In this document: positions 23,050-44,727 of the stretch, in pieces
How positions within the stretch are numbered: position 1 is the first letter of the stretch
Layout: every line of letters starts with the position of its first letter
Notes under the pieces: model-generated
What the model was told of the DNA's origin: nothing
Database searches by the model: none
What the model saw: only the letters and a program-made list of their open reading frames with translations
Assembly: GCA_964631855.1 (NCBI GenBank)
Contig: CAZWAM010000004.1
Span: forward strand, 3,508-61,276
Source: an uncultured bacterium
GTDB taxonomy: Bacteria; RBG-13-66-14; B26-G2; WVWN01
Length of the DNA: 57,769 nt
Direction of reading: 5' to 3'
Translations under genes and position numbers: made by a program

Positions 23050-23061
23050 AGCCTCTCACAT

Positions 23062-24267: not shown

Positions 24268-24271
24268 CGCA

Positions 24272-25132: not shown

Positions 25133-25173
25133 ACCCGCTGCGAACTACCTTAATAAAATCTCCACCTACGCCC

Positions 25174-25779: not shown

Positions 25780-25792
25780 TTCGCTTAAGTTT

Positions 25793-26698: not shown

Positions 26699-26738
26699 AT
26701 TGCTCGCTCCCGTCAACGTAAGAGCCGCCTTTTTTAAA

Positions 26739-26767
26739 AGTTTACCAGCGGCTCAGGAGGGTGTCAA
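26739..26767 (-). promoter_or_regulatory. Possible internal promoter
   Basis: Minus strand: TTGACA (26767-26762), 17-nt spacer, TAAACT (26744-26739). Confidence 0.35.
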
Positions 26768-26792
26768 GTTAAAACACTTCCCACTCCGCAAA

Positions 26793-27254: not shown

Positions 27255-27255
27255 T

Positions 27256-27774: not shown

Positions 27775-29808
27775 CTATCTCGCGACGGCCAACCGGCGCG
27801 CCGCGGAACCCGCCGACGAGGCGAAACAGCAGACGTAAACGCCCGGCGGCAGCGGCCGGCCCGCGCCGTCGGCAACCGACCACGTTATAACGTTCTCCCC
27901 CGCGCGAGCGCCGCGCGCCACCGTCGCTATGCGCCGGCCGGCGAGGTCGAAAACCGCGAGCTCCGCCCCGGGGTCGTCCGAGGGGAGCGAGAACGCGAAA
28001 GTTACGCTCCCGGACGCCGGGTTCGGCCTCGGTTGGGCAAAAGCAAACGGCGCGGCCTTTACGCCCGCCCGGGCCTCCGCCGGGCCAAAGGTACGGCTCG
28101 CGCCGGCGCGCGGTACGTACTCCAGCCAATAGCGGTAAGTGATACCGCCCTCGACGTCCCGGTCGAAGAAGCGGAAGGGCGGCCGGCCGCTGACCGGCGC
28201 CCGGTTTATTCTCGCGAGGCTTTTACCCGGGCGTCCGCGGTAGACGTTAAAAACGCCGGCCAACCCGCCCTCGCCCGGAGCCCACGACAGAAGGATACCC
28301 TCCGCGCGGCCCGCGGCTCGGAAATATCTCAGCTCGACGGGCGTCAGTAACTTCATAGCGGCCTCGTAAACGTCGAGCCGGCCGGCGCCGTAGTCGTTAT
28401 CCTTGCCGGGAGGGCCCAGGTCCAACGCGGTGATTTGCATTATCTCCGATAAATCCTCGGGGGTGAGGTTCTCGTCGACGTCCAAAAGCAGCGCGGCGCA
28501 ACCTGCGGCGTGGGGCGACGCCATCGACGTCCCGGACATATCCCTATACCCCGAATTGTCGTTGTGCCGACAGGATTTAATCTGGTACCCGGGAGCCGCG
28601 ACATCCGGCTTCAGAAGGCCCATCTTGGCGCCGTTCTCGTAAGGGTAGTCGCGCCACGGGTCGATGGTCTCCCAACTGCTCGGGCCCATGCTTGAGAAAT
28701 AGGCATACACGTCGTCCTGCGTCGTCGCGCCGACGGCCATCATCGACGCCAGGCCGCCCTTCAACTTCTGGTCGGGGTGGAGCCACGGCGGCGGACAATT
28801 GCCGGGAGCCGAGACGTTCCAGGGCAGGGGGTCCGTCGTATTGACCGAACTGCGGTAGTTCCCCGCCGATTTAAACTGGATGAAGCCGGCGCTGAGCTGT
28901 ATCTCGGAGGCGTAACGCCACGTCGCGTAGTCCGGGTTGGTATAAACGCGCCAGCCGAATGAGAGCGTTCCCAGGTCCGCGCCCTGACCGACGGCCCACT
29001 GCCAGGCTTCCCACACCGTGGACTCGACGCCGCTTATTTTACAAATCATAATCGTGGCATCGGGCGCGACGCCGGCTTGAGTACCGGCCGTGCCGTCGGA
29101 GGCCACGATGCCGCACACGTGGGTGCCGTGGCCGTTGTAATCCATGGTCTCTTCGTTATTGTCGGCGAAGTTCCAACCGTGCTTCGGGAAATTCGGGCCG
29201 CCCTCCCACATGTGGTCCCGGAGGTCGAGGTGGTTGTAATTGCACCCCGTATCGAAGACCGCAACCGTAACCCCCTCGCCCCGGTAGTCCATCGTCCAGA
29301 CGTCGGGGGCGCGGACTTTGGCGACGCCCCAAGCTATCTCGTCGCGGGAAGCGTCCGCCGCCGCGGCCTCGAATTCCAGGACCTGGTCGAGCGGGATCTC
29401 CTCATCCCAGTCGACGCTGCGGACGTCGCGCCGCGCGGCGAGGCGGCGGGCGATATCGGCGTCCACCCAGGCGTTTATAGCGTTCACGAGCCACATCACG
29501 CGCACGTCGCGCGCGCGGGCCGCCCGCTCGGCTTCCGCGAGTAAATCCAAAACGCCCCCTTGCGTATCACGCGCGAATCGCCGGAGCTCGTCCACGACGA
29601 CCGCCCGACGTTCCCCGCGCGAAAGGCCCCGCGCAATCGAAGCCATAACCTCCGGGTCGTATCGTTCCCTCATCATTATGTTGACCCGTACCAGCTCGCC
29701 CGACTCGAGGGTTTGGAGGCGAGCGGCGAGCTGAGGCGTCATACCGTCGAAGCCGCGCGCGGGTACGACGGCCGCGAGGGCGATAATTACAATTAAAATA
29801 GTCCTCAT
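27775..29808 (-). CDS. Secreted S8 (subtilisin-like) serine peptidase with Por/T9SS-type C-terminal sorting domain
   Basis: Catalytic triad contexts VFDTGCNYNH (Asp), HGTHVCGIV (His) and SGTSMASPHAAG (Ser). Start preferred at ATG 29808 (MRTILIVIIALAAV; GGAGG 5 nt upstream). C-terminus: ...PNPASGSVTFAFSLP...LAVFDLAGRRIATV...GVYVCCF...RRLAVAR. Confidence 0.9.
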   Translation of the reverse strand: MRTILIVIIALAAVVPARGFDGMTPQLAARLQTLESGELVRVNIMMRERYDPEVMASIARGLSRGERRAVVVDELRRFARDTQGGVLDLLAEAERAARARDVRVMWLVNAINAWVDADIARRLAARRDVRSVDWDEEIPLDQVLEFEAAAADASRDEIAWGVAKVRAPDVWTMDYRGEGVTVAVFDTGCNYNHLDLRDHMWEGGPNFPKHGWNFADNNEETMDYNGHGTHVCGIVASDGTAGTQAGVAPDATIMICKISGVESTVWEAWQWAVGQGADLGTLSFGWRVYTNPDYATWRYASEIQLSAGFIQFKSAGNYRSSVNTTDPLPWNVSAPGNCPPPWLHPDQKLKGGLASMMAVGATTQDDVYAYFSSMGPSSWETIDPWRDYPYENGAKMGLLKPDVAAPGYQIKSCRHNDNSGYRDMSGTSMASPHAAGCAALLLDVDENLTPEDLSEIMQITALDLGPPGKDNDYGAGRLDVYEAAMKLLTPVELRYFRAAGRAEGILLSWAPGEGGLAGVFNVYRGRPGKSLARINRAPVSGRPPFRFFDRDVEGGITYRYWLEYVPRAGASRTFGPAEARAGVKAAPFAFAQPRPNPASGSVTFAFSLPSDDPGAELAVFDLAGRRIATVARGARAGENVITWSVADGAGRPLPPGVYVCCFASSAGSAARRLAVAR

Positions 29809-29865
29809 AACGGCCTCCAAAAAACGCCGGCCCCGTTGGCATACCGGCGATTCATACCCCAAACG

Positions 29866-30025: not shown

Positions 30026-32191
30026 CTACCGACCGATTATAACCAGCTTCCCGACCTCGAGCTGGTCATTCCCCATAACGCGATATATGTAAAGCCCCGG
30101 CACCAAAGGCCTCCCGTCGTGACCGGGCCGCCATATGAAATTCTCGCGGCCGGGCGCCACGTCGCTGCGGGCAACCTTCCGCCCGGCGACGTCGAAAACG
30201 GTCACGGTTGCGGGCGACGAAATGCCGTCGAAAGTTATGCCGGCGCCCGAGGCATAATTATAAGGGTTGGGAAATACGCGGAAAGGCCGGCGGGGCCGCG
30301 GTTCCTCCCTCGCCGCGACCGCGGGGTCTCGTACGCCGATGTACTCCGAGCGCGCGAGATGGCCTACGGTCGCGGCGGCGGTTTTGCCCACGCGCGTCGC
30401 GAGGGGTATGGTTAGCTTGTCTAAAGTATCGTCCGGCGTATGATAATAAGGGTAAACTAAGTCGGGTTTGGAGCCCGGGCCGCCCTCGAAAAGGCCTACC
30501 GCCTCGTATTTTGCTTCCCAAAAAGAGCAGTGGTCCCCCTGGCCGCCGTAGATTTCGTAGTCGAACATCAGCTCGAGCCCGTATAGCTTGCCGACCGCGG
30601 CGACGTAGTCGCCGAGCCATATGGAAGCGCCGTCCACTCTGATTATCGCGTCGTCGCGCGAGCCCCGGTCCTCGTCATACGCGACCATATCGAGAACGAC
30701 GGCCGCGACTATCTTCTCGTCCTTAACCGAACATTCCTCCACGTACGCGCGGCTGCCGCCGTAGCTCTGCTCGGCGCCGCCGAAGAGTACGAAACGCAGC
30801 GTCCGGCCGACGCCGAGGTTGCCGAAGGCCGTCGCGGCGGCGAGAACGCAGCTCACCCCCGAGGCGTTCGCGTCCGCGCCTGGCGCGCCGTCGGCCGGCC
30901 GGGAGGAGGTGGAATCGTAGTGAGCCCCGAGCAGGATAATTTCGTCGTCCGCGACCGAGCCGCGACGCTCCGCCACGACGTTCTCCCAGAACATGTCCAA
31001 CCGAAGGTTGATCTTTTCGAAACTTACGCCGCCGTCACGAGTCAAATAGATCTCCCGGCCGAAGAGGTCGGTTAAGAGGCCGTGCTCGGCGTCGCCGAAG
31101 GCCCCGTCGCCCCAAAATACCTCCGGCGCGCTCGGTACAAGCGACCACGTCCGGCCGCCGTCTTCCGTCTTGTAAATTACGCCTTTGCCCGCGGTGAACC
31201 CGGTGGCCGCGTCCGGAAAAGAGACCGTCGTTAAAACGGCCGCGGAACCCGTTTCCACGTACGACCAATTTTCGCCGCCGTCTTTCGTGTACAGGAGTCT
31301 CGGGCCCCCGTACGCGGCCCACGCGACGTCGCCGTCAATAGCGACGAACGACCTGACGTCCGCCGGGGGAACGGGAAAGCCTTGCACCGTCCAACGCGTG
31401 CCGCCGTCTTCGGTCCGATAGATAACGCCGTCGTCGTACCAACTCGGCACCGCCCAACCCCTCCCGGCGTCGCCGAAAGCGATTGTATGGGGACAACCGA
31501 AATTGGGCAACGACTGCGCCGCCCAACTCCCCCCGCCGTCGTCGGTATAGTATATTCGCGGCGAAGACTCGTGGGAACAAGCGGCCCAACCCACGTCGCG
31601 GTCGACGAAAAATACGGACCTGAGGATATCGGCCGCGCCCTCGTCGACGCGAAGGTTTTGCCACGTTCGCCCGCCGTCCTCCGTTTTGGCCACGGTGCTC
31701 TCCGCCGACGCCGCGTACCCCACGGCGGCGTCGACGAAATGAGCGTCGTAAAGGCGCCCCGGCGCGAACGGGAATTGGCGCTGCCAGGAAGCGCCGCCGT
31801 CCGCGGAATTGTAAAACGTACTCCCGGCGGTAAAGACCCAGGCCGTTTTGTCCGCGTCCCCCCAATAGCTCCGCTTAAGGCATACGCCCCTGAACTCGTG
31901 CAAACGCGTCGAGTAGCCGAGGCCCGCGAGGATTTGCCGGGCGTAATCGCGCGCTTCCTCGCTTCCGGGCATATAGGAATACCGGCTTTTGAGATCTTGT
32001 AAGTATTGGATGTGGCCCGCGACAAGCTCGTCCGTAATGCCGTCCAAAGCCGCGGCGATAGCCGAGTCGCGGCCCGAGGGCGGCGGCTCGTCGCAGAAAG
32101 CCGGCGGCAAAGGGCCAATTAAAAAGTATAAAAAAGCCGTGGCCTTTACATATTCAATCTTTAAAACTCCGCGCATAAGCCCTCGCCACAT
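30026..32191 (-). CDS. M28-like protein, paralog 1 (short form): split M28 fold with a nested 7-blade Asp-box propeller and a sorting C-terminal domain (CTD); catalytic residues substituted
   Basis: 721 aa. Seven SxDxGxxW-type boxes: SADGGASWQ, TEDGGRTWQ, TDDGGGSWA, TEDGGTRWT, TKDGGENWS, TEDGGRTWS, TRDGGVSF. M28 blocks: GAHYDS, APGADANASG, FGGAEQSYGGS, VLDMV, YYHTPDD. CTD: VFPNPYNYASGAGITFDG...VFDVAGRKV...GLYIYRV...GKLVIIGR. Confidence 0.85.
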   Translation of the reverse strand: MWRGLMRGVLKIEYVKATAFLYFLIGPLPPAFCDEPPPSGRDSAIAAALDGITDELVAGHIQYLQDLKSRYSYMPGSEEARDYARQILAGLGYSTRLHEFRGVCLKRSYWGDADKTAWVFTAGSTFYNSADGGASWQRQFPFAPGRLYDAHFVDAAVGYAASAESTVAKTEDGGRTWQNLRVDEGAADILRSVFFVDRDVGWAACSHESSPRIYYTDDGGGSWAAQSLPNFGCPHTIAFGDAGRGWAVPSWYDDGVIYRTEDGGTRWTVQGFPVPPADVRSFVAIDGDVAWAAYGGPRLLYTKDGGENWSYVETGSAAVLTTVSFPDAATGFTAGKGVIYKTEDGGRTWSLVPSAPEVFWGDGAFGDAEHGLLTDLFGREIYLTRDGGVSFEKINLRLDMFWENVVAERRGSVADDEIILLGAHYDSTSSRPADGAPGADANASGVSCVLAAATAFGNLGVGRTLRFVLFGGAEQSYGGSRAYVEECSVKDEKIVAAVVLDMVAYDEDRGSRDDAIIRVDGASIWLGDYVAAVGKLYGLELMFDYEIYGGQGDHCSFWEAKYEAVGLFEGGPGSKPDLVYPYYHTPDDTLDKLTIPLATRVGKTAAATVGHLARSEYIGVRDPAVAAREEPRPRRPFRVFPNPYNYASGAGITFDGISSPATVTVFDVAGRKVARSDVAPGRENFIWRPGHDGRPLVPGLYIYRVMGNDQLEVGKLVIIGR

Positions 32192-32197
32192 AATACG

Positions 32198-32225
32198 ATT
32201 ATACCAAACTTACCACAAATAGCAA
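32198..32225 (-). promoter_or_regulatory. Promoter-like element abutting the paralog-1 start codon
   Basis: Minus strand: TTGCTA (32225-32220), 16-nt spacer, TATAAT (32203-32198). ATG 32191 lies only 6 nt past the -10 box. Confidence 0.4.
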
Positions 32226-32399
32226 ATCGCACCCCGAGAAACGCGCTCGCGCCGGACGAAAATAAATTATGAAGAAGCGACGACGCGTCAAAGGTCGTCC
32301 TTCTTCCGACGCGTAATTCTATATTAATTTTAATAAAAATGCGGCCGCCCGCCCGCGTAAGGCAGGCGACCTGGCCGGACGTCACGCGAGGCGCTGCCC

Positions 32400-34901
32400 T
32401 TATTTCGAGACGACGATTTTCCCCGCCTCTCTCTGCTCGCGCCCCTCGACGCGGTAGAGGTAGACGCCGGGTGCGAGCGAATCGCCGTTAGCGCCGGCAG
32501 GCCGCCATACGCACTCGTCGCTGGGCGCGGCCACCTCCTCGCGGCCTACGCGCCGGCCGGCGAGGTCGTATACCTCAACCGTCGCCGGCGATTTAATGCC
32601 GACGAAGTTGACGCCGCCCGCGGACGTCGCGTAGCAATACGGGTTCGGGTAAACGGCAAACGGTCGGACGAAGGGGACCGCGGCCGTCCCCGGCGGCGCA
32701 GGTTCGAAGAAGTACGGCCCCACGCCGGCGAGGTGCGCCAGCGTCGCGGCGTAATCGCGGACGAAGCGCACGCCGAGCTCGGGATGGAGCTTGTCGAGGG
32801 TATCTTCGGTGGTGTGGATATACGGATATTCTTCGCCGCCGCCCACGCCCTTTTCCCCCTCGATAACGCCCATCGCGGCGTAACCGACATCTTCGAACGG
32901 CCCATGGTCGCCGACGCTGCTCGCCTCGTAGTCGTATATAAGGGCATTACCGTACAACCGGCCGACGCGTTTCAGGTATTCGTACAACCACCACGATTTT
33001 CGAGTCTCGGCCGTGAAGTCGTCGCGTGCCCCGCCCTCCTCGTCGTAACAAACCATATCGGCGTTGAGGACCGCGACTACCTTCTCCCCTTTTTGGGCGC
33101 AATAATTCGCGTAGGCTTTACTACCTATCACGCCTTGCTCTTCGGCGCCGAAAGCCACGTAGCGAACGGTCCTTTTAAAGGACATATTCCGAAAAGCCCT
33201 CGCCGCAGCCATCGCGCACGCCGTCCCGGAGGCGTTATCGTCGGCCCCCGGGCAATCCGAAGGGTAACGGGGCCCCGCGAATGAATCGAAATGGCCGCCG
33301 ATGAGTACGATTTCTTCCAGACGTTCGCAGCCCCGCCTCTCGCCGACGACGTTTTCGGAGGCCAACCCTATCCTCCCAACGACGTCGCGGAAACTCTTAC
33401 CGCCGTCCCCCGTTACGAATAATTCGGATTCGGCCGTGGCGCCCAAAAGGCCGTGCGCCGCGCCGGCGAAAGATAAAATATCGCAGAAACCCTCGCCGGG
33501 CTTACGTAACAAACGCCACGTCTTGCCGCCGTCGGAGGTCGCGACCAGCCGGTCGCCCGCGGCGAAGCCGTGGGTACGGTCCGGGAACTCGATTTGCGAC
33601 AAGTGCCCCTCGTGCCCCGGGTTGACGTAATACCAGTCCGTACCGTTCTTCGTGCGGATCAGTCTCGAGTCGCCGACTGCCGCCCACGCCTCGGCCTCCG
33701 AAACGGGCGCTATGTCGTATATCCGGAACGCAGGCTTCGAGCACAACCGCCAACTACTGCCGCCGTCGCGGGAATAGTAAACGAGGTAATGGTCCGTAAC
33801 CCAAAGGCAATTCTCGTCGTACGCGCGGATCATGCGCACCGCGAAATCTTCGGCGACGTGCTGGGGGGCCCACGTCTTGCCCCCGTCAGAGGTCTTATGG
33901 AGAATTAGCTCGTACCGCCGCCGCGGTACACCCTTTCCCCCGCCGAACCACCCTACGTTTGCCGAGGCGAAAAATAAGTCGTTGATTACGAACCGGGCGC
34001 CCGGTTCCGACGGCGCAATTTTATAAGTCTTCCAAGTATAGCCGCCGTCCGAGGTCTTGCCGATCGTTTTAGCATAATCGTCGCGGTAAATAAAACCGAC
34101 CCGCTCGTTCACCCAAAACGAGTTATCGAGCCAATCCGTCCGCGCACCGTAAAAAGAATCCCACGAGGTACCGCCGTCCCGCGTCCTTTTGAAAACGCCT
34201 ACGTCCGTGTCGACGTATATAACGCCGTTCTTGTCCGCGAAGTGGGCGTTTTTAATCCCGGCACAATCGAAAGGGAAAAAGGAAGTTTCTAGATTTTGGA
34301 GGGCGAAGAAGTTACGGATATAATCGCGGGCCGCGTCGCAACCGGCGGTCTCTACCGCCCGGGTTTTAAAATCTTGTAATTGTTTAATATACGAGGCGTA
34401 CTCTTCCGCCGTTATCGTGTTAATAGCTCCTTCGATCGCCGGGTCCTTCTTCGTAGGCGGCGCCTCGCCGTCGTAGCGCCAGTCGACCGGCGTCACCGGC
34501 TCAAGCTTTATCAGCTCGATTCTATGCTCGACGGCGCGGAGCGCTCCCGGGCCCAAGCCCCGCTCGAGCCCTACGAGGATTTCATATTCCGAGAGCCGTA
34601 CCGCGGCGCCCAGGTGCTCGAAATGCTCGGGCGTGATTTTTACCCACGCCGGCGCCCAGACGATATAGTAATCCTTCGTTTGCGCTTCCCGGTCGAGGAG
34701 GCGGTACGGCGCCACGCGGCCTAACGCCGCGCTCGAGCCGTTGTACAAATACCCTCCCGCCGCCTGCCCGAGATAATAAAGCCCCGCCGCCTCGTCGGGC
34801 CGGACTTCCTTTTCGGAAATTACGACGAGGTCGCCGGGCAGCGCGTACGCCGCCGCGGCGAAAATAAAACCCACGACGGCCGCAACTATCGTCTTCCTCA
34901 T
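32400..34901 (-). CDS. M28 peptidase, paralog 2: N-terminal domain + split M28 + nested 7-blade propeller + sorting CTD
   Basis: Start preferred at ATG 34901 (MRKTIVAAVVGFIFAAAAYA; GGAGG 8 nt upstream). Blocks: GGHFDS, CPGADDNASG, FGAEEQGVIGS, LNADMV, YIHTTEDT. Asp-boxes include TRDGGTSWD, TSDGGYTWK, TSDGGKTWA, SRDGGSSWR, TSDGGKTWR. Confidence 0.85.
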   Translation of the reverse strand: MRKTIVAAVVGFIFAAAAYALPGDLVVISEKEVRPDEAAGLYYLGQAAGGYLYNGSSAALGRVAPYRLLDREAQTKDYYIVWAPAWVKITPEHFEHLGAAVRLSEYEILVGLERGLGPGALRAVEHRIELIKLEPVTPVDWRYDGEAPPTKKDPAIEGAINTITAEEYASYIKQLQDFKTRAVETAGCDAARDYIRNFFALQNLETSFFPFDCAGIKNAHFADKNGVIYVDTDVGVFKRTRDGGTSWDSFYGARTDWLDNSFWVNERVGFIYRDDYAKTIGKTSDGGYTWKTYKIAPSEPGARFVINDLFFASANVGWFGGGKGVPRRRYELILHKTSDGGKTWAPQHVAEDFAVRMIRAYDENCLWVTDHYLVYYSRDGGSSWRLCSKPAFRIYDIAPVSEAEAWAAVGDSRLIRTKNGTDWYYVNPGHEGHLSQIEFPDRTHGFAAGDRLVATSDGGKTWRLLRKPGEGFCDILSFAGAAHGLLGATAESELFVTGDGGKSFRDVVGRIGLASENVVGERRGCERLEEIVLIGGHFDSFAGPRYPSDCPGADDNASGTACAMAAARAFRNMSFKRTVRYVAFGAEEQGVIGSKAYANYCAQKGEKVVAVLNADMVCYDEEGGARDDFTAETRKSWWLYEYLKRVGRLYGNALIYDYEASSVGDHGPFEDVGYAAMGVIEGEKGVGGGEEYPYIHTTEDTLDKLHPELGVRFVRDYAATLAHLAGVGPYFFEPAPPGTAAVPFVRPFAVYPNPYCYATSAGGVNFVGIKSPATVEVYDLAGRRVGREEVAAPSDECVWRPAGANGDSLAPGVYLYRVEGREQREAGKIVVSK

Positions 34902-34924
34902 TCCCGCCGCCTCCTTCAACGTAT

Positions 34925-34953
34925 ATTTAATGACATCCCGCCCGGCTAGTCAA
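34925..34953 (-). promoter_or_regulatory. Possible promoter for paralog 2
   Basis: Minus strand: TTGACT (34953-34948), 17-nt spacer, TTAAAT (34930-34925). Confidence 0.4.
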
Positions 34954-34958
34954 GTTAT

Positions 34959-34996
34959 AAAAAAATGCCCGCCCGCGCAACCCGGGCTTTTTTTTT
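34959..34996 (-). terminator. Bidirectional-looking terminator between paralogs 3 and 2
   Basis: An A7 run, a GC hairpin (gcccg...cgggc within tgcccgcccgcgcaacccgggc), then a T9 run. On the minus strand the hairpin is followed by ATTTTTTT. Confidence 0.45.
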
Positions 34997-35025
34997 GCCA
35001 GTACTACGTACGAAAGCCTTTTTGC

Positions 35026-37569
35026 CTACTTCACGACGACGATTTTCCCGGCTTGCTTCTGCTCTCGCCCCTCGACGCCGTAGAGGTAGACGCCCGGCGC
35101 GAGCGCGCCGCCGTCGTCCCCGGCAGGCCGCCACACGCACTCGTCGCGACCCACGGCCACCTCCTCGCGGCCTACGCGCCGCCCCGCAAGGTCGTATATC
35201 TCCACCGTCGCGGGTGACTTAAGGCCGACGAAGTTCACGCCTCCCGCGGATGTCGCGTAGCAATACGGATTCGGATAAACGGCGAAGGTCCGGGCGTAGG
35301 GAACGGCCTCGCCCCCGGGCGGCGGCGGCTCGGTAAAGGTCCCGGCCACGCCCGCCAGGTGGGCCAGCGTCGCGGCGAGGTCCCGGGCGCAGCGCGCGCC
35401 GAACGCCGGCTGGAGCTTGTCGAGCGTATCCTCGGGCGTGTGGTACCAGGGATATTCTATACCGCCGCCCTCGCCGACCTCGCCTTCGATGACGCCCAGC
35501 GCCGCGTAACCAACTTTAGTGAACGACCAGTCGTCGCTGACCCAATCGTCGTCCCAATCGTATATAAGCTCCTGGCCGTAGAGGCTACCTACGGCCTGTA
35601 AGTAACCCACCAACCAGGATGCCTCTTTAGGCGCGCCAACCGTCAGGTCGTCGCGGGAGCCGTTCTCTTCGTCGTAACTCACCATATCGGCGTTGAGGAC
35701 CGCCACGATCTTTTCGCCCTTTTCGGCGCACTCCCGGGCGTAGGCCTCGCTGCCGAGGAGGTACGCCTCCTCGTCGCCGAATCCCATAAACCGCACGGTC
35801 CGTTTGAAGCTGACGTTGCGGAAGGCGCGGGCGGCGCACATCGCGACCGCCGTCCCGGAGGCGTTGTCCTCCGCGCCGGGGCAGACCCAGGGCCGTTCGG
35901 TGGAAATGGAGTCGTGGTGGCCGCCCACGATAACGATCTCGTCCGGCCTCTCGGTCCCCTTACGCTCGGCGACGACGTTGTACTCCGGGGCGTTGAGACG
36001 GCCGGATATATCGGTCCAGCTCGAGCCGCCGTCGTCGGTCCGGTAGACGGCGTCGCCGTAGTAATCGCCGATGACGCCACGCGAGGCGTCGGCGAACGCC
36101 ATAACGACGCATTCGATCGCGGGCGCGGCCTTGACCCGCGCCCAGGTCCGGCCGCCGTCGTTCGTTTTAATCAGCGGGTCGCCGCCTATATAGCCCCGGG
36201 CCGTGGTCGGGAACTCCACCTGCCGGAAGTCGCCCCTGAAGCCGGTATCGACTTCTTTCCAGTTCACGCCGTCGGTGGTGTGGAGGACGCGGTTAAGGGT
36301 CGTTACGCCCCACGCATCCGCGGCCCCCACGGCCGCAACGTCGTATACGTATTCGCCGCGGCCTAACGGAACCGAACAGACCTGCCAATTATCACCGCCG
36401 TCTGCGGTGTAATAAAGCGGGGGGGCGTACACGGTATACACCACCGCCCATATATGACTCGAGGTATAACAAACCATACGGTTGAAGTAACGCATGGCAG
36501 GATGCATTAGCGGAATCCCGCGCCACGTTTGGCCGCCATTTTCCGTTTTTACCAGCCGGTCAGTTCCGATATAACCACCGCCCGCGGCCTTCCAATCCGC
36601 ATAGCTTATCCAGCCGACGCGCGGCGTCGCGAACGCTATGCCGTAGATGGAACGGAAAGCCACCGGCAGGGCCGGCGCGTATCGCACGTATTGACAGGAA
36701 TCGCCGCCGTCCTCGGTTATCGCGACGTAACCGTCGATGCCCGCGACGAAACCCGCGTCGCCGTCGAGCCACCAACACGACGGCGGGTTATAATAATTCC
36801 CGGCGGCCCCCTTGGCGGGGCGGAGGGTGTCCCAGCTCGCGCCGCGGTCCCGGGAGCGCCGGACCATGCAGTGGTAATCGTCTAGGTAGATATTGCCGCC
36901 CGCCTCCGGATAATGGGCGACCTCGTAGCGGCCGCACGCGAACGCGTGCCAATCAGCGTCCAGGTTTTGCCCGGCGAACCAGTTGCGGAGCCAGTTGCGC
37001 GCCCCCTCCATGTTCGGCGTAAAGGAATAGCGCGTCCCGTAACTCTGAAGCTTGCCGATGTACCCCGCGTATTCTTCCGCCGTGATGGTTTTGATGGCCG
37101 CGTCCACCGTGGCGTCTTTCTTGGTGGGCGGCGCCTCGGCCACCCCCTTCCAGGCCGCGCGCGTCGTAGGCCGCAGCTCGCGGACGCGCAGGCGCGGCTC
37201 CATAGCCAACAGGATGCCGATATCGCCGGGGGCCGCGACCGCAACCACGTAGTCGTCGCCGAGCCGTTGGACGTCGCCTACCGTCGCCATATCCGCCGCC
37301 GTCAGCGCCGTTCGCCTGGGCGGCGAGACGAGGAAGTAATGCTTGCCGCGGGCGCCCTCGTCCAACACCCGGTACGGCGCCACGCGCCCGAGCGCGGCGC
37401 TCGAGCCGTTATACAAATACCCCGCCGCGCACAAGCCCAAATAATAAAGCCCCGCGCCTTCGTCGGGCCGGACCTCTTTATCGGAAATCACGACGAGGTC
37501 GCCAGGCAACGCGTACGCCGCCGCGGCTGCGAGAGCGGCCCCGACGACTATAATATTTATTATCTTCAC
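35026..37569 (-). CDS. M28 peptidase, paralog 3: same architecture
   Basis: 847 aa, GTG start (VKIINIIVVGAALAAAAAYA). Blocks: GGHHDS, CPGAEDNASG, FGDEEAYLLGS, LNADMV, WYHTPEDT. Seven Asp-box-like repeats. CTD: VYPNPYCYATSAGGVNFVGLKSPATVEIYDLAGRRV. Confidence 0.85.
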   Translation of the reverse strand: MKIINIIVVGAALAAAAAYALPGDLVVISDKEVRPDEGAGLYYLGLCAAGYLYNGSSAALGRVAPYRVLDEGARGKHYFLVSPPRRTALTAADMATVGDVQRLGDDYVVAVAAPGDIGILLAMEPRLRVRELRPTTRAAWKGVAEAPPTKKDATVDAAIKTITAEEYAGYIGKLQSYGTRYSFTPNMEGARNWLRNWFAGQNLDADWHAFACGRYEVAHYPEAGGNIYLDDYHCMVRRSRDRGASWDTLRPAKGAAGNYYNPPSCWWLDGDAGFVAGIDGYVAITEDGGDSCQYVRYAPALPVAFRSIYGIAFATPRVGWISYADWKAAGGGYIGTDRLVKTENGGQTWRGIPLMHPAMRYFNRMVCYTSSHIWAVVYTVYAPPLYYTADGGDNWQVCSVPLGRGEYVYDVAAVGAADAWGVTTLNRVLHTTDGVNWKEVDTGFRGDFRQVEFPTTARGYIGGDPLIKTNDGGRTWARVKAAPAIECVVMAFADASRGVIGDYYGDAVYRTDDGGSSWTDISGRLNAPEYNVVAERKGTERPDEIVIVGGHHDSISTERPWVCPGAEDNASGTAVAMCAARAFRNVSFKRTVRFMGFGDEEAYLLGSEAYARECAEKGEKIVAVLNADMVSYDEENGSRDDLTVGAPKEASWLVGYLQAVGSLYGQELIYDWDDDWVSDDWSFTKVGYAALGVIEGEVGEGGGIEYPWYHTPEDTLDKLQPAFGARCARDLAATLAHLAGVAGTFTEPPPPGGEAVPYARTFAVYPNPYCYATSAGGVNFVGLKSPATVEIYDLAGRRVGREEVAVGRDECVWRPAGDDGGALAPGVYLYGVEGREQKQAGKIVVVK

Positions 37570-37670
37570 GTCTGCACTTCCCCTACTCGCCGGCGTTACC
37601 TGGCGATGACTATCTTGCCCGCCTTCTTCTGCTCCCGCCCGACGACGCGGTAGAGGTAGACGCCGGGGGC
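37510..37670. repeat. 161-bp perfect direct repeat, copy 1 (junction of paralogs 4 and 3)
   Basis: Base-for-base identical to 40071-40231 at an offset of 2561 bp; mismatches at 37509/40070 and 37671/40232 bound it. It covers the last ~25 codons of one gene, the 26-nt spacer with SD sequence, and the first ~20 codons (signal peptide) of the next gene. Confidence 0.9.
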
Positions 37671-40130
37671 AAGCGTTTCACCCTCCCGAGTAGCGGGCCG
37701 CCACACGCACTCGTCGCAGCCGTCGGCTACTTGCTCTCGAGCAACGCGCCGGCCTGCCAGATCGTATATCTCCACCATCGCTGGCGACTTCAGGCCGACG
37801 AAGTTGACGCCTCCCGCGGATGCCGAATAACAATACGGGTTCGGGTAAACGGCGAAGGGTCGGGAGAACGGGACCGCGGCGTACCCCGGCGGCGCAGGTT
37901 CGAAGAAGTACGGGCCCAAGCCGGCTAAGTGCGCCAACGTCGCCGCCAGGTCGCGGCAAAGGCGGACGCCCAGGGCCGGGTGGAGTTTATCCAACGTATC
38001 CTCGGCGGTATGATAGTACGGATAGTCGATAACGCGACCTTCGCCCTTACCTCCTTCGATGACGCCGAGCGCCGGATAACCGGCATCCCAGAACCGGGCG
38101 TGGTCGGCCCACCACTCCTCCGAATCGTAAATTAAGTCGTTACCGTACAGGCGGCCCACGCCCACTAAATAATCGTAAAGCCACTTGTACGTATCCTCTT
38201 TATGGGCCACGGCAAAATCGTCACGCGCGCCGCGGTCCTCGTCGTATGATACCATGTCGGCGTTTAATACCGCGACGACCTTCTCGCCGCGCCGCGCGCA
38301 TTCTTCCGCATAATATTTACTTCCGATACAACCGTATTCCTCGGCGCCGAAGGCAACGTAACGCACGGTCCTTTTAAAAGACATATTCCGAAACGCCCGC
38401 GCCGCGGCCATCGCGCAAGCCGTCCCGGAGGCGTTATCCTCGGCGCCGGGAGCCACCCACGGCCTTTCGTCCGAATAGGAGTCGTAGTGGCCGCCGACGA
38501 TGACGATCTCCTCAGGGACCTCACAACCTAAGCGCTCCCCTATCACGTTGTCCGCGGACAAGTTCAAGTCTTGTGATATATCCACGAACGTTTTGCAACC
38601 GTCGTCGGTCCGGTATTGATGTTGGCCTTTCTCATCTCCCACTACGCCATGCAAACGGTCCGCAAACGCGAGAAGGTCGCATTCCATCTCGGGCGCGCCC
38701 GCTACTTCGCGCCACGTCTTGCCGCCGTCGTCGGTGGCTATTAAGGTTGAACCCGCGGCGTATCCGTGCTCGGCGTCTGGGAATTCGACGTTGTAAAACC
38801 ATCCCGAGACGCCGGGGTTAACGTACTGCCAATTGAGGCCGTCGATGGTATGCAAGAGCATATTCGAACGGTCCGCGGCCCAAGCCTCGCGCTCGCCAAC
38901 CGCGGCGAGGTCGATGTAATATACCATCCCCCCTATAGGGTCGGCGCAAGGCCGCCACGTCGCACCGCCGTTGTCGGTGTAAATAAAACACGGTTTGAAA
39001 TTAGTATAGCAGTTCGCCGCCCAACCGCATTTCCCGTCAAAGAAGCTGATACTACCGGCCCGGAAGTGCTCGGGAAGATTTTGTTCCTTCCATGTCCGCC
39101 CGCCGTCCGTAGTTTTCAAAATATAAGCACCGTAGTAGAAACCCTGGGGCGTTACGTAAGGCGGGTACGCAACAACGCCGAGCCAGCCGACATATTCCGA
39201 CATGAAATGGCACGAATAAGGGTAATAGCTCCACGTGCGGCGTTCCTGGCCGAAGTCCACCGTATCCCACGTGTCGCCGCCGTCGCGCGTCTTCGCAAGC
39301 TTCTTGTTCGAGCCGGGGGCAAAGCCCGTAAGGCTGTCTAACCAGTAACCTTCCCCGTAGGCATTTACGCCACGGGGCCAGACCGCATCCCACGTACCAC
39401 CGCCGTCGCGCGAACGCCGTATTAGGCCGTGCCGGGTATCGAGGTATATATTGCCGCCGGCCTTAGGATAATGAGCGGCCGCGAATTCGGTGCACGGGAA
39501 CGGGAATAACGTCGTCTCGAGGTTTTGCGTCGCGAAGAAGTTCCGGAGGTAATCGCGCGCGCCTTCGCAACCGCGCGTCAACGTATATCGCGTCCAGTAA
39601 TCCTGCAATCGTTTTATATAACCGGCGTACTCTTCTTCGGTAATTGTGTTTATAGCCCCTTCTATAGCCGGATCCTTCTTCGTCGGCGGCGCCTCGCCGT
39701 CGTAGCGCCACTCCACCGGCGTCACGGGCTCGAGCTTTATCAGCTCAACTCTGTGGTCGACGGCCCGGAGCGCGCCCGGGCCCAGGCCCCGCTCGAGCCC
39801 TACCAGTATTTCATATTCCGAGAGCCGAACTGCCGTACCCAAATGCACAAAGTCCGCGGCCGTAACCTTCACCCATTCCGGCGCCCAGACGATATAGTAA
39901 TCTTTGGCCTCCGCGTCGCGGTCCAGGAGGCGGTACGGCGCCACGCGGCCTAACGCGGCACTCGAGCCATTGTACAAATACCCCGCCCCGCACGAGCCCA
40001 AATAATAAAGCGCCGCCGCCTCGTCGGGCCGGACTTCCTTAGCAGAAATCACGACGAGGTCGCCGGGTAGCGCGTACGCCGCCGCGGCTGCGAGAGCGGC
40101 CCCGACGACTATAATATTTATTATCTTCAC
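37596..40130 (-). CDS. M28 peptidase, paralog 4: same architecture
   Basis: The ORF track extends to 40262, but that extension reads through the CTD of paralog 5 in another frame. The GTG at 40130 gives the same VKIINIIVVGAALAAAAAYA signal peptide as paralog 3. Blocks: GGHYDS, APGAEDNASG, FGAEEYGCIGS. Confidence 0.85.
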   Translation of the reverse strand: MKIINIIVVGAALAAAAAYALPGDLVVISAKEVRPDEAAALYYLGSCGAGYLYNGSSAALGRVAPYRLLDRDAEAKDYYIVWAPEWVKVTAADFVHLGTAVRLSEYEILVGLERGLGPGALRAVDHRVELIKLEPVTPVEWRYDGEAPPTKKDPAIEGAINTITEEEYAGYIKRLQDYWTRYTLTRGCEGARDYLRNFFATQNLETTLFPFPCTEFAAAHYPKAGGNIYLDTRHGLIRRSRDGGGTWDAVWPRGVNAYGEGYWLDSLTGFAPGSNKKLAKTRDGGDTWDTVDFGQERRTWSYYPYSCHFMSEYVGWLGVVAYPPYVTPQGFYYGAYILKTTDGGRTWKEQNLPEHFRAGSISFFDGKCGWAANCYTNFKPCFIYTDNGGATWRPCADPIGGMVYYIDLAAVGEREAWAADRSNMLLHTIDGLNWQYVNPGVSGWFYNVEFPDAEHGYAAGSTLIATDDGGKTWREVAGAPEMECDLLAFADRLHGVVGDEKGQHQYRTDDGCKTFVDISQDLNLSADNVIGERLGCEVPEEIVIVGGHYDSYSDERPWVAPGAEDNASGTACAMAAARAFRNMSFKRTVRYVAFGAEEYGCIGSKYYAEECARRGEKVVAVLNADMVSYDEDRGARDDFAVAHKEDTYKWLYDYLVGVGRLYGNDLIYDSEEWWADHARFWDAGYPALGVIEGGKGEGRVIDYPYYHTAEDTLDKLHPALGVRLCRDLAATLAHLAGLGPYFFEPAPPGYAAVPFSRPFAVYPNPYCYSASAGGVNFVGLKSPAMVEIYDLAGRRVAREQVADGCDECVWRPATREGETLAPGVYLYRVVGREQKKAGKIVIAR

Positions 40131-40231
40131 GTCTGCACTTCCCCTACTCGCCGGCGTTACCTGGCGATGACTATCTTGCCCGCCTTCTTCTGCTCCCGCC
40201 CGACGACGCGGTAGAGGTAGACGCCGGGGGC
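40071..40231. repeat. 161-bp perfect direct repeat, copy 2 (junction of paralogs 5 and 4)
   Basis: Identical to 37510-37670. Confidence 0.9.
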
Positions 40232-42652
40232 CGCGGCCCGCGCTGCAGGCCGCCACACGCACTCGTCGCTGGGCGCGGGCACCTCCTCCCGCGCCACGCG
40301 CCGGCCGGCAAGGTCGTATATCTCCACCGTCGCCGGCGACTTGACGCCGACGAAGTTCACGCCGCCCGCGGATGTCGCGTAGCAGTACGGGTTGGGGTAG
40401 ACGGCGAAGGGGCGGGCGAAGGGCACCGCCGCCACGCCTGGGCGCGGGTCCTCGACGCCGGTGTCGTCGAACGCGGCGAGATGCGCGAACATGGCGGCGT
40501 AGTCGCGGGCGAAGCGTACGCCCAGGGCGGGGCGGAGCTTATCGAGGGTGTCCTCGGTCGTGTGGTAATATGGGTATACCATACACCCGCCGGGCCCGAC
40601 GTTACCTTCGATTACGGCCAGAGCGGCGTAATTGAAAAGCCGAAAAGCCTCCTCGTCGCTACCGACGACGCCGACCTCGTAAATAACATTATTACCGTAT
40701 AGGCCACCGACGGCCTTCAAATAATCGAATAACCACTTGTCACGGCCGTAATCCACCGCGTAATCGTCGCGGTTACCGCCATCCTCGTCGTAACAAACCA
40801 TGTCGGCGTTGAGGACCGCGACGATATCGTGGCCCCGGTCCGCGCAGTACCGGGCGTAAAATTTACTGCCGACCAATCCGTCCTCTTCGGCCGCGAACGC
40901 AACGTACCGGACCGTCCTCGGAAAATCATTTCCTTTCAAAGCCCGGGCCGCGGCCAGGACGCAGGCGGTTCCCGAAGCGTTATCTTCGGCCCCGGGAGCG
41001 AGGGACGGAAGCATATCCGAGAGCGAATCGTAATGGCCGCAAATAATTACTATTTTATCCGGTTGGGAGCTGCCCCGCCGCTCGCCGACGACATTCTCGC
41101 CCGATATATCCACGTTATCGACAATATTGGTGAATGAGATACCGCCGTCGTCGGTCAGACACAGGTATTCCCCTAAGTGATCGCCCACGACGCCGTGGTT
41201 CCTATCGGCGAACGATAGCGCGAAACAAGCGCCGGTGGGCAACCCCGTAATCTCGCGCCACGTAGCCCCGCCGTCGGAAGTCGCGAAGAATTCAATCCCG
41301 GCGGCGTAGCCGTATTGACTATCAGGGAATTCTAAACGATATATCGGCCGGAAGGCGCCGACGTCTACCCGCGACCACGTCAACCCGTCGGTCGTATGTA
41401 GAATATTATTTTTGCCGGAGGTCGCCCACGCTTCGCGAGGGCCGACAGCTTCGATATCATTGACCGCTCCTACGCCACCCGGTAGGTTCCCTTCCTGCCA
41501 CGATTCCCCGCCGTTGGCAGTATAGAAAATCCGGCCGTCCGAACCGAAGTCCCAGGCCCAACCGTGATTGACGTCGTAGAAACCCATGGCGCCAATACGG
41601 GCCCCCCCCGGTGCGGGCCGAGGAGTCCAGGTCCGGCCTCCGTCCGTCGTCTTCGCCAGGAAGCCCGTGGGGATTTCGCTGTTCCTTTGGTAATCGCCGC
41701 CGAGCCATCCGATTTCGGGCGTCGTAAAACAAATACTAAACGCCTTGTATTTGTGTTCGGGATACCCGGAAGCGAACGTGATCGTCTCCCAGGTATCGCC
41801 GCCGTCGGTGGTTCTTGCGATTCGGTTGTTTTTCGCGCCGATGAACCCCGTATCGCGGTCATACCAAAAAACCGAAAGTATCCCGTCCGTACCTTCCGCA
41901 TAAACCGTGTCCCAAGTTAGGCCGTTGTCCTTGGACCTTTTAATGGTACTACGGTTCGTCCTAAGGTATATCCTAGCCGAAGCGGCGTCGTAATACGCTC
42001 CCCGGAAGCCCACGCAATCGAATTCGAACAACGACGTATCCAGCCCTTGCGCGGAGAAGAAGTCCCGGATGTAATCGCGTGCGGCGTCGCACCCCTTCGT
42101 GTCGGTACGCCGGGTTTTAAAACCCTGTAGCGTTCTAATATAACCGGCGTATCCCGCTTCCGTAATCGTATTGACCGCGGCCTCGATTACGGGGTCCTTT
42201 TCCGTCGGCGGCGCCTCGCCGTCGAACCGCCAATCCACGGGCGTTACGGGCTCGAGCTTGCGTAGTTCTATGCGATGCTCTACGGCCCGGAGGTCGCCCG
42301 GGCCCAGGCCCCGCTCGAGGCCGACCAGTATCTCGTATTCCGAGAGCCGCACCGCGGCGCCCAAGTGTTCGAAATCCTCGGCCTTAACCTTCACCCATTC
42401 CGGCGCCCAGACGATGTAGTAATCCTTGAGCTGGGCGTCACGGTCAAGGAGGCGGTACGGCGCCACGCGGCCTAACGCCGCACTCGAGCCGTTATATAAA
42501 TAACCGTCCCCCGCTTGCCCCAAATAGTACAACCCGGCCGCCTCGTCGGGCCGAACTTCTTTATCGGAAATTACGACGAGGTCGCCGGGTAACGCGTACG
42601 CCGCCGCGACAAAAGTTACGCTCGCGACGGCGGCATATAGTAACCTCTTCAC
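40157..42652 (-). CDS. M28 peptidase, paralog 5: same architecture
   Basis: Start preferred at GTG 42652 (VKRLLYAAVASVTFVAAAYA; GGGAG 7 nt upstream). The track start at 42673 lies 1 nt from the -10 box. Blocks: CGHYDS, APGAEDNASG, FAAEEDGLVGS, LNADMV, YYHTTEDT. Confidence 0.85.
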   Translation of the reverse strand: MKRLLYAAVASVTFVAAAYALPGDLVVISDKEVRPDEAAGLYYLGQAGDGYLYNGSSAALGRVAPYRLLDRDAQLKDYYIVWAPEWVKVKAEDFEHLGAAVRLSEYEILVGLERGLGPGDLRAVEHRIELRKLEPVTPVDWRFDGEAPPTEKDPVIEAAVNTITEAGYAGYIRTLQGFKTRRTDTKGCDAARDYIRDFFSAQGLDTSLFEFDCVGFRGAYYDAASARIYLRTNRSTIKRSKDNGLTWDTVYAEGTDGILSVFWYDRDTGFIGAKNNRIARTTDGGDTWETITFASGYPEHKYKAFSICFTTPEIGWLGGDYQRNSEIPTGFLAKTTDGGRTWTPRPAPGGARIGAMGFYDVNHGWAWDFGSDGRIFYTANGGESWQEGNLPGGVGAVNDIEAVGPREAWATSGKNNILHTTDGLTWSRVDVGAFRPIYRLEFPDSQYGYAAGIEFFATSDGGATWREITGLPTGACFALSFADRNHGVVGDHLGEYLCLTDDGGISFTNIVDNVDISGENVVGERRGSSQPDKIVIICGHYDSLSDMLPSLAPGAEDNASGTACVLAAARALKGNDFPRTVRYVAFAAEEDGLVGSKFYARYCADRGHDIVAVLNADMVCYDEDGGNRDDYAVDYGRDKWLFDYLKAVGGLYGNNVIYEVGVVGSDEEAFRLFNYAALAVIEGNVGPGGCMVYPYYHTTEDTLDKLRPALGVRFARDYAAMFAHLAAFDDTGVEDPRPGVAAVPFARPFAVYPNPYCYATSAGGVNFVGVKSPATVEIYDLAGRRVAREEVPAPSDECVWRPAARAAAPGVYLYRVVGREQKKAGKIVIAR

Positions 42653-42674
42653 GACATCACTCCCTTCTCGCACA

Positions 42675-42704
42675 ATTATATACCAACAAGTCGGGATAAG
42701 TCAA
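42675..42704 (-). promoter_or_regulatory. Sigma70-like promoter at the head of the M28 array
   Basis: Minus strand: TTGACT (42704-42699), 18-nt spacer, TATAAT (42680-42675). Confidence 0.5.
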
Positions 42705-42795: not shown

Positions 42796-44727
42796 TTATT
42801 TTTGGCTTTCCCCCTCGTCCTCAACGATTTCGTAGTCGGCGTCCACGACGTCGCCCTTGGGGCCGTCGCCGCCCGGGGGCGGCGGCTGCGCGCCCGTTCC
42901 GCCGGGAGGCGGCTGCGCCCCCGCGCCGGCCTGCTGGTAGAGCCGCGTGGACATCTCGTTCAGCGCGACCTCCAGGCCCTCGGTGGCCGAACGGATCTCG
43001 GCCGCGTCGCCCTTCTCGCGGGCGTCTTTGAGGCGCCGGATGGCCCCGTCTATCTTGTTCTTCTCTTCAGCGGTGACCTTGTCGCCAAGCTCCTTCAAAA
43101 GCTTCTCGGACTGGTAGACGGCGGAGTCGGCGCGGTTCTTGATCTCGGCCTCCTCGCGCATCTTCTTGTCCTCCGCCTCGTGGTCCTTGGCCTCCCCAAC
43201 CATCCCGTCGATCTCGTCGTCGGTGAGGCCGCTGGAGGCCGTGATGGTGATGCGCTGCTCCTTGCTGGTGGCCATGTCCTTCGCCGAGACGTTCAGGATG
43301 CCGTTGGCGTCGATGTCGAAGGTCACTTCGATTTGCGGGACGCCGCGGGGCGCGGGCGGTATACCCTCCAGGTGGAAGCGGCCTATGGTCCGGTTGTACG
43401 CGGCCATCTCGCGCTCGCCCTGCAGGACGTGGATTTCGACCGTCGTCTGGTTGTCGTCCGCGGTGGTGAAGATCTGGCTCTTGCGGGTGGGGATGGTGGT
43501 GTTGCGCTCGATGAGGCGGGTCGTAACGCCGCCCAAGGTCTCGATTCCCAGCGAGAGCGGCGTGACGTCGAGGAGCAGGACGTCCTTGACGTCGCCGGCG
43601 AGAATGGCGCCCTGAATCGCGGCGCCCAGGGCCACGACCTCGTCCGGGTTGACGGACCTGTTGGGTTCCTTGCCGAACAGCTGCCTGACTTTGTTCTGGA
43701 CCGCGGGCATACGCGTCTGGCCGCCGACCAGGATGACCTCGTCGACTTCGGCCGGCGCAAGGCCCGCGTCCTTGAGGGCCTGTTGGCACGGCCCGACGGT
43801 CCTCTCGACGAGGTCGGCTACCAGCTCTTCGAGCTTGGCCCGCGTGACCTGCTTCTCGAGGTGCTTGGGCCCGGTGGCGTCCGCGGTGACGTACATCAGG
43901 TTAATAGCGGTCTCTGTTAGGGTAGAGAGCTCGCATTTGGCTTTCTCCGCGGCCTCCTTGAGCCGCTGGAGCGCCATCTTGTCCTCGCGCAGGTCGATGC
44001 CCGTATCGTTCTTGAACTCGTCGGCGAGCCAGTTGATGACGCGTTCGTCGAAATCGTCGCCGCCCAGGTGCGTATCGCCGTTGGTCGCCAGCACCTGGAA
44101 GACGCCTTCCTCGCCGATCTCGAGGATCGAGATGTCGAAGGTCCCGCCGCCGAGGTCGAAGACCGCGACCTTCTCGTTGGCCTTCTTCTCGAGGCCGTAG
44201 GCAAGGGCCGCGGCGGTAGGTTCGTTGATGATGCGCTCGACCTCGAGGCCGGCGATCTTGCCCGCGTCCTTGGTGGCCTGGCGTTGGGAGTCGTTGAAAT
44301 AGGCCGGCACCGTCACCACGGCCTTATTGACGCGCTCGCCCAGGTAGTCTTCCGCGGTCTCGCGCATCTTCTGCAGGACCATGGCGCTTATCTCGGGCGG
44401 CGAATACTGTTTGTCGCCGATTTGGACGCGGCAATCGCCGTTGGCCGCCTCGACCACCTTGAAGGAAACCGTCTTGATCTCCGCGGGCACCTCCGCGTGC
44501 CGGCGCCCCATGAAGCGCTTTATAGAATAAACGGTATTCTCCGGGTTGGCTATCGCCTGCCGCTTGGCGACGGAACCGACGACCCTTTTGCCGTCTTTCA
44601 GGAATGCCACCACGGAAGGCGTCGTCCGCGACCCCTCGGCGTTGGGGATCACCACCGGCTCGCCACCCTCCATCACGGCCACGCACGAGTTGGTGGTCCC
44701 CAGGTCGATACCGATTATCTTAGGCAT
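42796..44727 (-). CDS. dnaK: Molecular chaperone DnaK (Hsp70)
   Basis: 643 aa. [22 protein letters not shown]..., DLGGGTFD, and a C-terminal acidic tail. Confidence 0.97.

Follow-up and report, generated by a model that had tools for sequence, protein, structure and literature searches.

A Ycf48-like beta-propeller nested in the M28 peptidase fold of five tandem, predicted secreted proteins of an uncultured bacterium

The window analyzed here, meaning the whole stretch of DNA under study, comprises 57,769 nucleotides (nt) of contig CAZWAM010000004.1 from an uncultured, sediment-type bacterium. At 30026-42673, it carries an array of five tandem open reading frames (ORFs), all on the minus strand and read in the same direction, which encode proteins of 721 to 847 amino acids (aa). 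They are referred to below as G1 (40157-42673, 838 aa), G2 (37596-40130, 844 aa), G3 (35026-37569, 847 aa), G4 (32400-34919, 839 aa), and G5 (30026-32191, 721 aa). For G2, the longest ORF (888 aa) was rejected because it overlaps G1, and a GTG start at 40130 was preferred; for G4, gene callers begin at MRKT, which gives a protein of 833 aa. The G1-G2 and G2-G3 spacers are each 26 nt long and have the same sequence, the G3-G4 and G4-G5 spacers measure 106 and 208 nt, respectively, and direct-repeat analysis gave a tandem period of 2.5 to 2.6 kb. An earlier note on this DNA, made from the letters alone, had described five codirectional genes for proteins of 721 to 847 aa with two 26-nt spacers, and the ORF coordinates bear this layout out.

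Profile searches returned the same domains from every copy. All five proteins matched Peptidase_M28 PF04389 (93 to 118 bits against a cut-off of 21.3; E, 1e-26 to 1e-34), PSII_BNR PF14870 (40 to 63 bits against a cut-off of 27), and TIGR04183, the type A sorting domain of the type IX secretion system (T9SS) (24.4 to 29.6 bits against a cut-off of 23). The translations also show hydrophobic signal peptides. These matches support the domain order originally proposed, from signal peptide to sorting domain; in G1, and likewise in G2, it runs from the signal peptide through an N-terminal domain, an N-terminal segment of the M28 fold, the propeller, and the M28 core to the T9SS C-terminal domain. 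The N-terminal domain, of ~125 aa, follows the signal peptide in G1 to G4, is most divergent in G3, and is missing from G5, so its presence in four of the five copies, claimed at the outset, also holds. The sorting domain of G4 covers aa ~752-839 (32403-32666, minus strand) and scored 27.5 bits with TIGR04183. No T9SS genes were found among the ten neighboring ORFs scanned, and no search was made across the whole genome.

In every copy, a propeller of ~295 aa splits the M28 fold. It is nested within the peptidase, not appended to it, and lies in the hairpin that joins beta-strands 1 and 2 of the peptidase, with ~68 fold residues (two helices and strand beta1) ahead of it and ~215 after it. A plain Pfam scan shows no split of the M28 match because the PF04389 model starts downstream of the insertion site; profile positions 1 to 186 of 193 match contiguously after the propeller. 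A split Pfam match, the check put forward in the earlier note, was not seen, and such a scan is unable to detect the nesting. We judged it instead by comparison with full-length AAP, the leucyl aminopeptidase of Aeromonas/Vibrio proteolyticus, rather than with Pfam or NCBIfam profiles. Intact G4 aligned with AAP (phmmer against 1amp/3b3t; E, ~5e-21) from AAP residue 68 onward only. When G4 aa 222-516 were excised in silico, a single alignment covered AAP residues 2 to 267, and the score rose from 77.8 to 87.9 bits. Moreover, a natural propeller-less homologue (P0072, 537 aa), which shares 71% identity with G4 across the aligned nonpropeller columns, aligned contiguously to AAP residues 2 to 267, and its segment "PPTKKD...ITETEYAGYIKQLEDFKTR...ARDYLRGFF...TLFPFDY" spans AAP residues 2 to ~70. 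The alignments of P0072 and of excised G4 confirm what had first been read from the DNA, namely, that the propeller splits the peptidase domain.

On the minus strand of G4, the M28 N-terminal segment (aa ~152-219) occupies 34263-34466; it holds helices alpha1 and alpha2 and strand beta1, matches AAP residues 2 to ~70 after excision, and has a homologous segment in P0072. The propeller insert (aa ~220-518) follows at 33366-34262, and the M28 core (aa ~519-735), which carries H543, D561, E593, E594, D621, and H702, follows at 32715-33365. The position of the insert is constant in the family: among representatives at 50% identity, 36/36 have an insert of 284 to 310 aa at the same alignment column.

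An AlphaFold2 (AF2) model of G4, built from a 68-sequence alignment, had a mean predicted local distance difference test score (pLDDT) of 86.2 and a predicted template modeling score (pTM) of 0.70, with a pLDDT of ~95 in the helices and strand that precede the propeller. Foldseek aligned this model with 1amp (E, 8e-17; TMt, 0.66; root mean square deviation, 2.6 Å; ~30% identity) and with PaAP; the latter alignments span ~630 to 660 columns and therefore run across the insert. In PaAP, the M28 domain consists of residues 44-116 and 274-510, and the protease-associated (PA) domain of residues 117-273 swings over the active site, regulates access to it, and binds peptide termini (PMC10449631). 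The propeller ends just before G4 residue 520, and this residue pairs with index 248 in the PaAP chain. Index 248 is residue 274 provided that the chain begins at residue 27, which was assumed from the published construct (27-536) (PMC10449631), and not otherwise. The N-terminal boundary of the insert follows the equivalent of AAP beta1. With the assumed offset, its C-terminal boundary falls just after the PaAP PA domain, and the propeller appears to occupy the PA-domain insertion site. The PA domain profile PF02225 itself had no match at an E value of ≤0.01 in the five proteins. GCPII and the transferrin receptor are M28-type proteins that have a PA domain at what seems to be this site. Nesting at this M28 site is thus already known, and the propeller as the insert is the new element. 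We found no description of a propeller-containing M28 protein in the literature searched, and no characterized example. The initial remark that no characterized M28 peptidase with this nested architecture was known to its author therefore stands as far as the literature searched goes, but nesting at the site as such has precedents (PaAP, BSAP, and 2EK8).

The insert is a seven-bladed, Asp-box propeller of the Ycf48-like type. Besides the PF14870 match, Foldseek aligned the G4 model with Ycf48 structures at an E value of ~4e-13 and a TMt of 0.60 to 0.67 (0.64 for 5oj5), with 15 to 20% identity. Two details first given for the propeller needed correction. Its measured length is ~295 to 300 aa and not ~330 aa, and the seven SxDxGxxW repeats per protein were not recovered: the strict motif occurs once per protein, and most Asp-boxes read TxDGGxxW. 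G1 to G4 show 5 to 6 recognizable Asp-boxes plus one or two degenerate blades, and G5 shows 7 Asp-boxes. The Ycf48 equivalog NF010237 scored 47 to 70 bits, below its cut-off of 326 bits. The Sortilin/Vps10 profile PF15902 (cut-off, 33 bits) was passed by G1 (38.9 bits) and G5 (44.1 bits) only, with matches to ~110 of its 446 positions; a ten-bladed Sortilin/Vps10 domain was ruled out, as the fold has seven blades and these matches are partial. Across the five paralogs and 68 homologues, the only invariant propeller positions are the structural ones of the Asp-boxes and GW. The profile search also retrieved giant proteins of 2,000 to 6,600 aa with 8 to 12 separate Ycf48-like propeller matches (P0132-P0140 and similar), and multipropeller arrays of the Ycf48-like type therefore exist in metagenomes.

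The N-terminal domain of G4 (aa 25-150; 34470-34847, minus strand) combines a confident fold with a disordered linker behind it. When modeled separately by AF2, the domain reached a pLDDT of 93, and linker residues 143-149 had a pLDDT of <50 in the AF2 model. The domain had no Pfam match even at an E value of ≤10, and Foldseek gave no significant fold match in the PDB (best E, 0.12); the weak, nonsignificant matches were to ACT/HMA-like and tandem ferredoxin-like folds. The linker ends where the AAP alignment begins, at residue 2 of mature AAP. AAP-type precursors carry an N-terminal propeptide, and the G4 domain corresponds to it by position. From position alone, we hypothesize that this domain could be a removable pro-domain.

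G1 to G4 keep the AAP metal ligands His97, Asp117, Glu152, Asp179, and His256 as well as the general base Glu151 (AAP numbering throughout), and the full catalytic set is present in 33 of the 36 distant representatives. Judged by these residues, G1 to G4 are most likely active di-zinc aminopeptidases. G5 retains the propeller and the sorting domain; its PGADANASG motif replaces the bridging zinc ligand (Asp117>Ala), and its FGGAEQ motif replaces the general base (Glu151>Ala). The same two alanine changes are found in the G5 orthologues P0100 and P0143 (68% identity). Judging from mutagenesis of AAP, a protein that lacks the general base and the bridging ligand should have no activity. Because both are lost, the G5 lineage is probably inactive, and its members would be conserved pseudo-peptidases, that is, binding-only proteins.

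A hidden Markov model search covered 1.84 billion representatives; among the top 150, at least 36 clusters at 50% identity gave a single continuous match over the M28 N-terminal segment, propeller, M28 C-terminal part, and C-terminal domain. A word-indexed search showed this architecture in ~100 clusters at 90% identity, and the organisms it named were Zixibacteria or Coatesbacteria metagenome-assembled genomes (MAGs); further named sources were Calditrichia, Ignavibacteria, and Eiseniibacteriota. All of these proteins are named by automatic annotation alone ("M20/M25/M40 family metallo-hydrolase," "M28 family peptidase," and "photosystem II stability/assembly factor-like"). The earlier note had allowed for an already characterized, widespread family, and what we found is widespread but uncharacterized. 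A scan of a genome collection returned mostly generic M28 cores; the family members among the matches listed were L003, L004, L005, and L006. The same scan drew attention to L019 (9746-14803; Zixiibacteriota bin295), a tandem M28 pair with a long C-terminal extension and a T9SS-like tail. It has no propeller and was rejected as a family member on account of this different architecture; tandem M28 expansion in that phylum is therefore not confined to the propeller family.

Arrays also occur in other MAGs, where the number of copies ranges from 3 to at least 6. One of them (L001) has an NYN-dnaK pair followed by at least six copies, two of which are propeller-less, and is syntenic with the window; a complete Coatesbacteria genome has a trio of 819, 537, and 842 aa. 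The propeller-less paralogs of 536 to 537 aa in related arrays (L001, 11585-13198 and 20992-21558; L002, 8369-9982) are without the insert at exactly this hairpin, where they show the junction TLFPF[DE]YxGxTY[HY], and keep all else. No propeller-less copy occurs in the window's own array. In a neighbor-joining tree without support values, P0072 stood apart from the other propeller-less forms, yet the junction TLFPF[DE]YxGxTY is common to all, and we do not claim independent losses of the propeller.

Divergence among G1 to G4 is uneven along the proteins. Pairwise identity was 31 to 43% in the propeller (mean between paralogs, 36%), 57 to 71% in the M28 core, 52 to 90% in the N-terminal domain, and 73 to 79% in the linker plus C-terminal domain. 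Of the conservation pattern originally described, the uneven divergence with the propeller lowest is thus upheld, but a core at 57 to 71% is not "nearly identical" between paralogs. Synonymous divergence (dS) was 0.5 to 0.9 at the termini, whereas the core and propeller gave values of >1.2 or saturation. The ratio of nonsynonymous to synonymous divergence (dN/dS) was <1 wherever dS was unsaturated, that is, for every computable value; propeller dS is saturated in most pairs, and pairwise dN/dS there says little about positive selection.

The gene boundaries behave differently from the rest. A 161-nt junction, made up of 75 nt from the 3' end of one gene, the 26-nt spacer, and 60 nt from the 5' end of the following gene, is present twice on the minus strand, between G1 and G2 (~40071-40231) and between G2 and G3 (~37510-37670), and the two copies are perfectly identical. 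Outside these junctions, the genes differ by 35 to 50% at the DNA level. The identity is a sign of recent gene conversion limited to gene boundaries, and the termini are similar partly because of this conversion, as seen in their low dS and in the repeated junction. Orthologues in other MAGs are 82% (G1), 69 to 71% (G2), 72 to 78% (G3), 71 to 82% (G4), and 68% (G5) identical to the respective array protein, and inside an orthologous lineage, propeller identity is 64 to 74%. The propellers look as if they diverged long ago and have been conserved since, which resembles stable subfunctionalization rather than an actively diversifying module. The earlier note had proposed such a module on a constant catalytic scaffold; the uneven divergence agrees with it, but the conservation of propellers within lineages, the dN/dS values of <1, and the conversion at the termini do not.

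The array is flanked by dnaK (42796-44727) and by a gene for a secreted S8 subtilase (27775-29862, minus strand), which adjoins it downstream. The C-terminal domain of the subtilase (PNP...VFDLAGRR...PPGVY) resembles the sorting domain of the M28 paralogs, and this neighbor suggests the context of an extracellular proteolysis locus. Immediately upstream of G1, a promoter-like element, TTGACT-18-TATAAT (42675-42704, minus strand), matches the consensus at 11 of 12 positions and is the best such match of the array; like the others, it is a consensus match only. The G3-G4 and G4-G5 spacers both contain terminator-like hairpins and promoter-like sites. From such consensus matches only, the likely transcription units are G1-G2-G3, G4, and G5.

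According to Rfam and tRNA scans, the window contains one tRNA-Met gene and no other RNA genes. Next to an NYN-domain gene and dnaK, at 46145-47044, lies a gene for a response-regulator receiver domain fused to an HSP20 small heat shock domain, and a related MAG shows the same arrangement beside NYN and dnaK (L001, 4672-5574). Lipid-related genes form a run at 22333-27756, just downstream of the protease genes. This run includes genes for a cytidylyltransferase-like protein (27256-27756), a CDP-alcohol phosphatidyltransferase (25174-25779), a UbiA prenyltransferase (24272-25132), and a geranylgeranyl reductase (23062-24267); beyond the run is a gene for a B12-binding radical SAM protein (20863-22311). 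We take this run to resemble the sets of archaeal-type ether-lipid genes that have been reported from bacteria of the FCB group.

We consider it fairly probable that the array encodes five old paralogs of an AAP-type M28 protein, exported by Sec and T9SS, in which a propeller at the PA site acts as a lid, with G1 to G4 active and G5 inactive. G1 to G4 would then be secreted or surface-attached di-zinc aminopeptidases and may work with the S8 endopeptidase in scavenging extracellular proteins and peptides. By analogy with the PA domain, the propeller, whose N and C termini are adjacent on the hairpin, would sit over or beside the active-site cleft and could serve as a lid that binds or gates substrates. 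Differing mainly in the propeller, the paralogs might represent a fixed repertoire of substrate preferences. Several points weigh against this reading. The lid or gating role is an analogy drawn from the shared insertion site alone. Since natural propeller-less paralogs keep the catalytic residues, the basic fold can do without the propeller, and so, probably, can catalysis. The propeller has no invariant polar residue that would point to a shared ligand site, and what it binds could be a surface polymer or a glycan instead of a peptide. Finally, the pro-domain role of the N-terminal domain is without fold or sequence support.

The main rival to a lid is a propeller that serves as an anchor or targeting module and binds a glycan, extracellular polymeric substances, or a cell-surface polymer, with no gating or selection of peptides; an otherwise ordinary aminopeptidase would thereby be tethered to the cell surface or to a particle of substrate. 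Asp-box propellers are found mostly in carbohydrate-active proteins (PMC2716378), and the glycosylhydrolase profile NF045728 gave subthreshold matches (33 to 44 bits against a cut-off of 175 bits). Related metagenome proteins include many stand-alone Ycf48-like propellers with T9SS tails, and the sharing of arrays with propeller-less paralogs in other MAGs is what one would expect of an accessory module. However, an anchor would more simply be appended, whereas this propeller sits in the hairpin beside the catalytic cleft, at the position from which, in PaAP, the PA domain regulates access; furthermore, Ycf48, its closest structural neighbor, binds a polypeptide according to the titles of entries 5oj5 and 5ojr. 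We regard the anchor as unlikely, if a serious contender. A link to carbohydrates would go further if the propeller were itself a catalytic glycosidase, sialidase- or GH74-like, and the proteins bifunctional enzymes. The BNR/Asp-box and Sortilin/Vps10 Pfam matches and the weak similarity to the F510_1955 glycosylhydrolase family point in that direction, but the NF045728 scores are far under the cut-off and the best structural neighbors are the noncatalytic Ycf48 proteins. Moreover, no Arg, Glu, Tyr, or Asp is invariant outside the Asp-box and GW positions in the five paralogs and 68 homologues; with structural positions alone invariant, a catalytic propeller is argued against, and we hold it to be very improbable.

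A different explanation concerns the uneven conservation, which might be nonadaptive: the propeller would be under relaxed constraint, the gene ends would be homogenized by conversion, and the array would provide redundant gene dosage. The double occurrence of the identical 161-nt junction with its shared 26-nt spacer, the low dS at the termini compared to the saturated or high values in the core and propeller, and the lack of a positive-selection signal among the computable dN/dS values are all compatible with it. Yet propellers are 64 to 74% identical within lineages and 36% between them, which argues for purifying selection on lineage-specific sequences, and insert length stays within 284 to 310 aa across at least 36 distant clusters. 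On balance, we find a nonadaptive origin of the pattern doubtful, though worth keeping in mind. The same identical junctions could in principle mislead an assembler, and the array could then be an artefact of wrongly expanded repeats or chimeric genes. Nevertheless, the same genes are present on a 68-kb NCBI contig and on a 59.7-kb ENA scaffold, the paralogs are 40 to 60% different over most of their length, and other MAGs contain syntenic NYN-dnaK-array loci and similar arrays. An assembly artefact is accordingly the least probable of the explanations weighed here, and its chance is slight indeed.

M28 aminopeptidases are among the commonest predicted secreted peptidases of sediment bacteria (PMC6258724), and they serve as markers of extracellular protein degradation. 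The family described here is an uncharacterized, moderately widespread M28 aminopeptidase variant with a Ycf48-like propeller in place of the PA domain. If the preferred reading, with the propeller as a lid, is true, a propeller in the PA site would be a second, independent means by which M28 enzymes control entry to their active site. Paralogs with a propeller, without one, and with a dead catalytic site stand side by side and offer a natural experiment on how nested domains tune the specificity of an exopeptidase. The present labels "M20/M25/M40 family metallo-hydrolase" and "photosystem II stability/assembly factor-like" miss the architecture, and the latter is misleading in nonphototrophs. 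More speculatively, the beta1/beta2 hairpin of M28 might be a general docking port for swappable lids, mostly PA domains and, in the FCB group, Ycf48-like propellers. Arrays such as this one would then be hard-wired repertoires of substrate selectors, including propeller-less copies and dead, G5-type receptor or decoy copies. We offer this wider idea tentatively, as one that may well prove wrong.

Among known systems, AAP (PDB 1AMP and 1RTQ; MEROPS M28) has the same alpha/beta di-zinc fold as G4, with its metal ligands and general base all kept in G1 to G4. Its precursor, which has propeptides, follows an order like that of the array proteins: signal peptide, N-terminal extra domain, mature peptidase, and C-terminal extra domain. 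AAP has no insert in the beta1/beta2 hairpin, whereas the array proteins hold ~295 aa there; unlike in AAP, the C-terminal domain of the array proteins is a T9SS sorting domain, and their N-terminal domain has no detectable similarity to known prodomains. PaAP (8AC7/8AC9), BSAP/YwaD of Bacillus subtilis (6HC6), and the Aneurinibacillus aminopeptidase (2EK8) are secreted proteins whose M28 domain is likewise split, apparently at the same hairpin. Their insert is a PA domain of ~155 aa, in contrast to the ~295-aa seven-bladed Asp-box propeller of the array proteins, for which there is also no evidence of the C-terminal autoinhibition of the PaAP type.

Prolyl oligopeptidase, DPP-IV, and tricorn follow the same concept, in that a beta-propeller beside a hydrolase domain restricts or feeds substrates; however, they are serine peptidases with an unrelated catalytic fold, and their propeller is not of the Asp-box type and is appended N-terminally rather than nested. 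The propeller itself is matched most closely by Ycf48/HCF136 (PDB 2XBG, 5OJ5, and 8AM5), likewise a seven-bladed Asp-box propeller of ~300 aa, which binds a polypeptide, the D1 peptide (entry titles of 5oj5/5ojr, "YCF48 bound to D1 peptide"). In oxygenic phototrophs, Ycf48 is a lipoprotein in its own right, whereas the array propeller is a domain nested in a peptidase of a nonphototroph.

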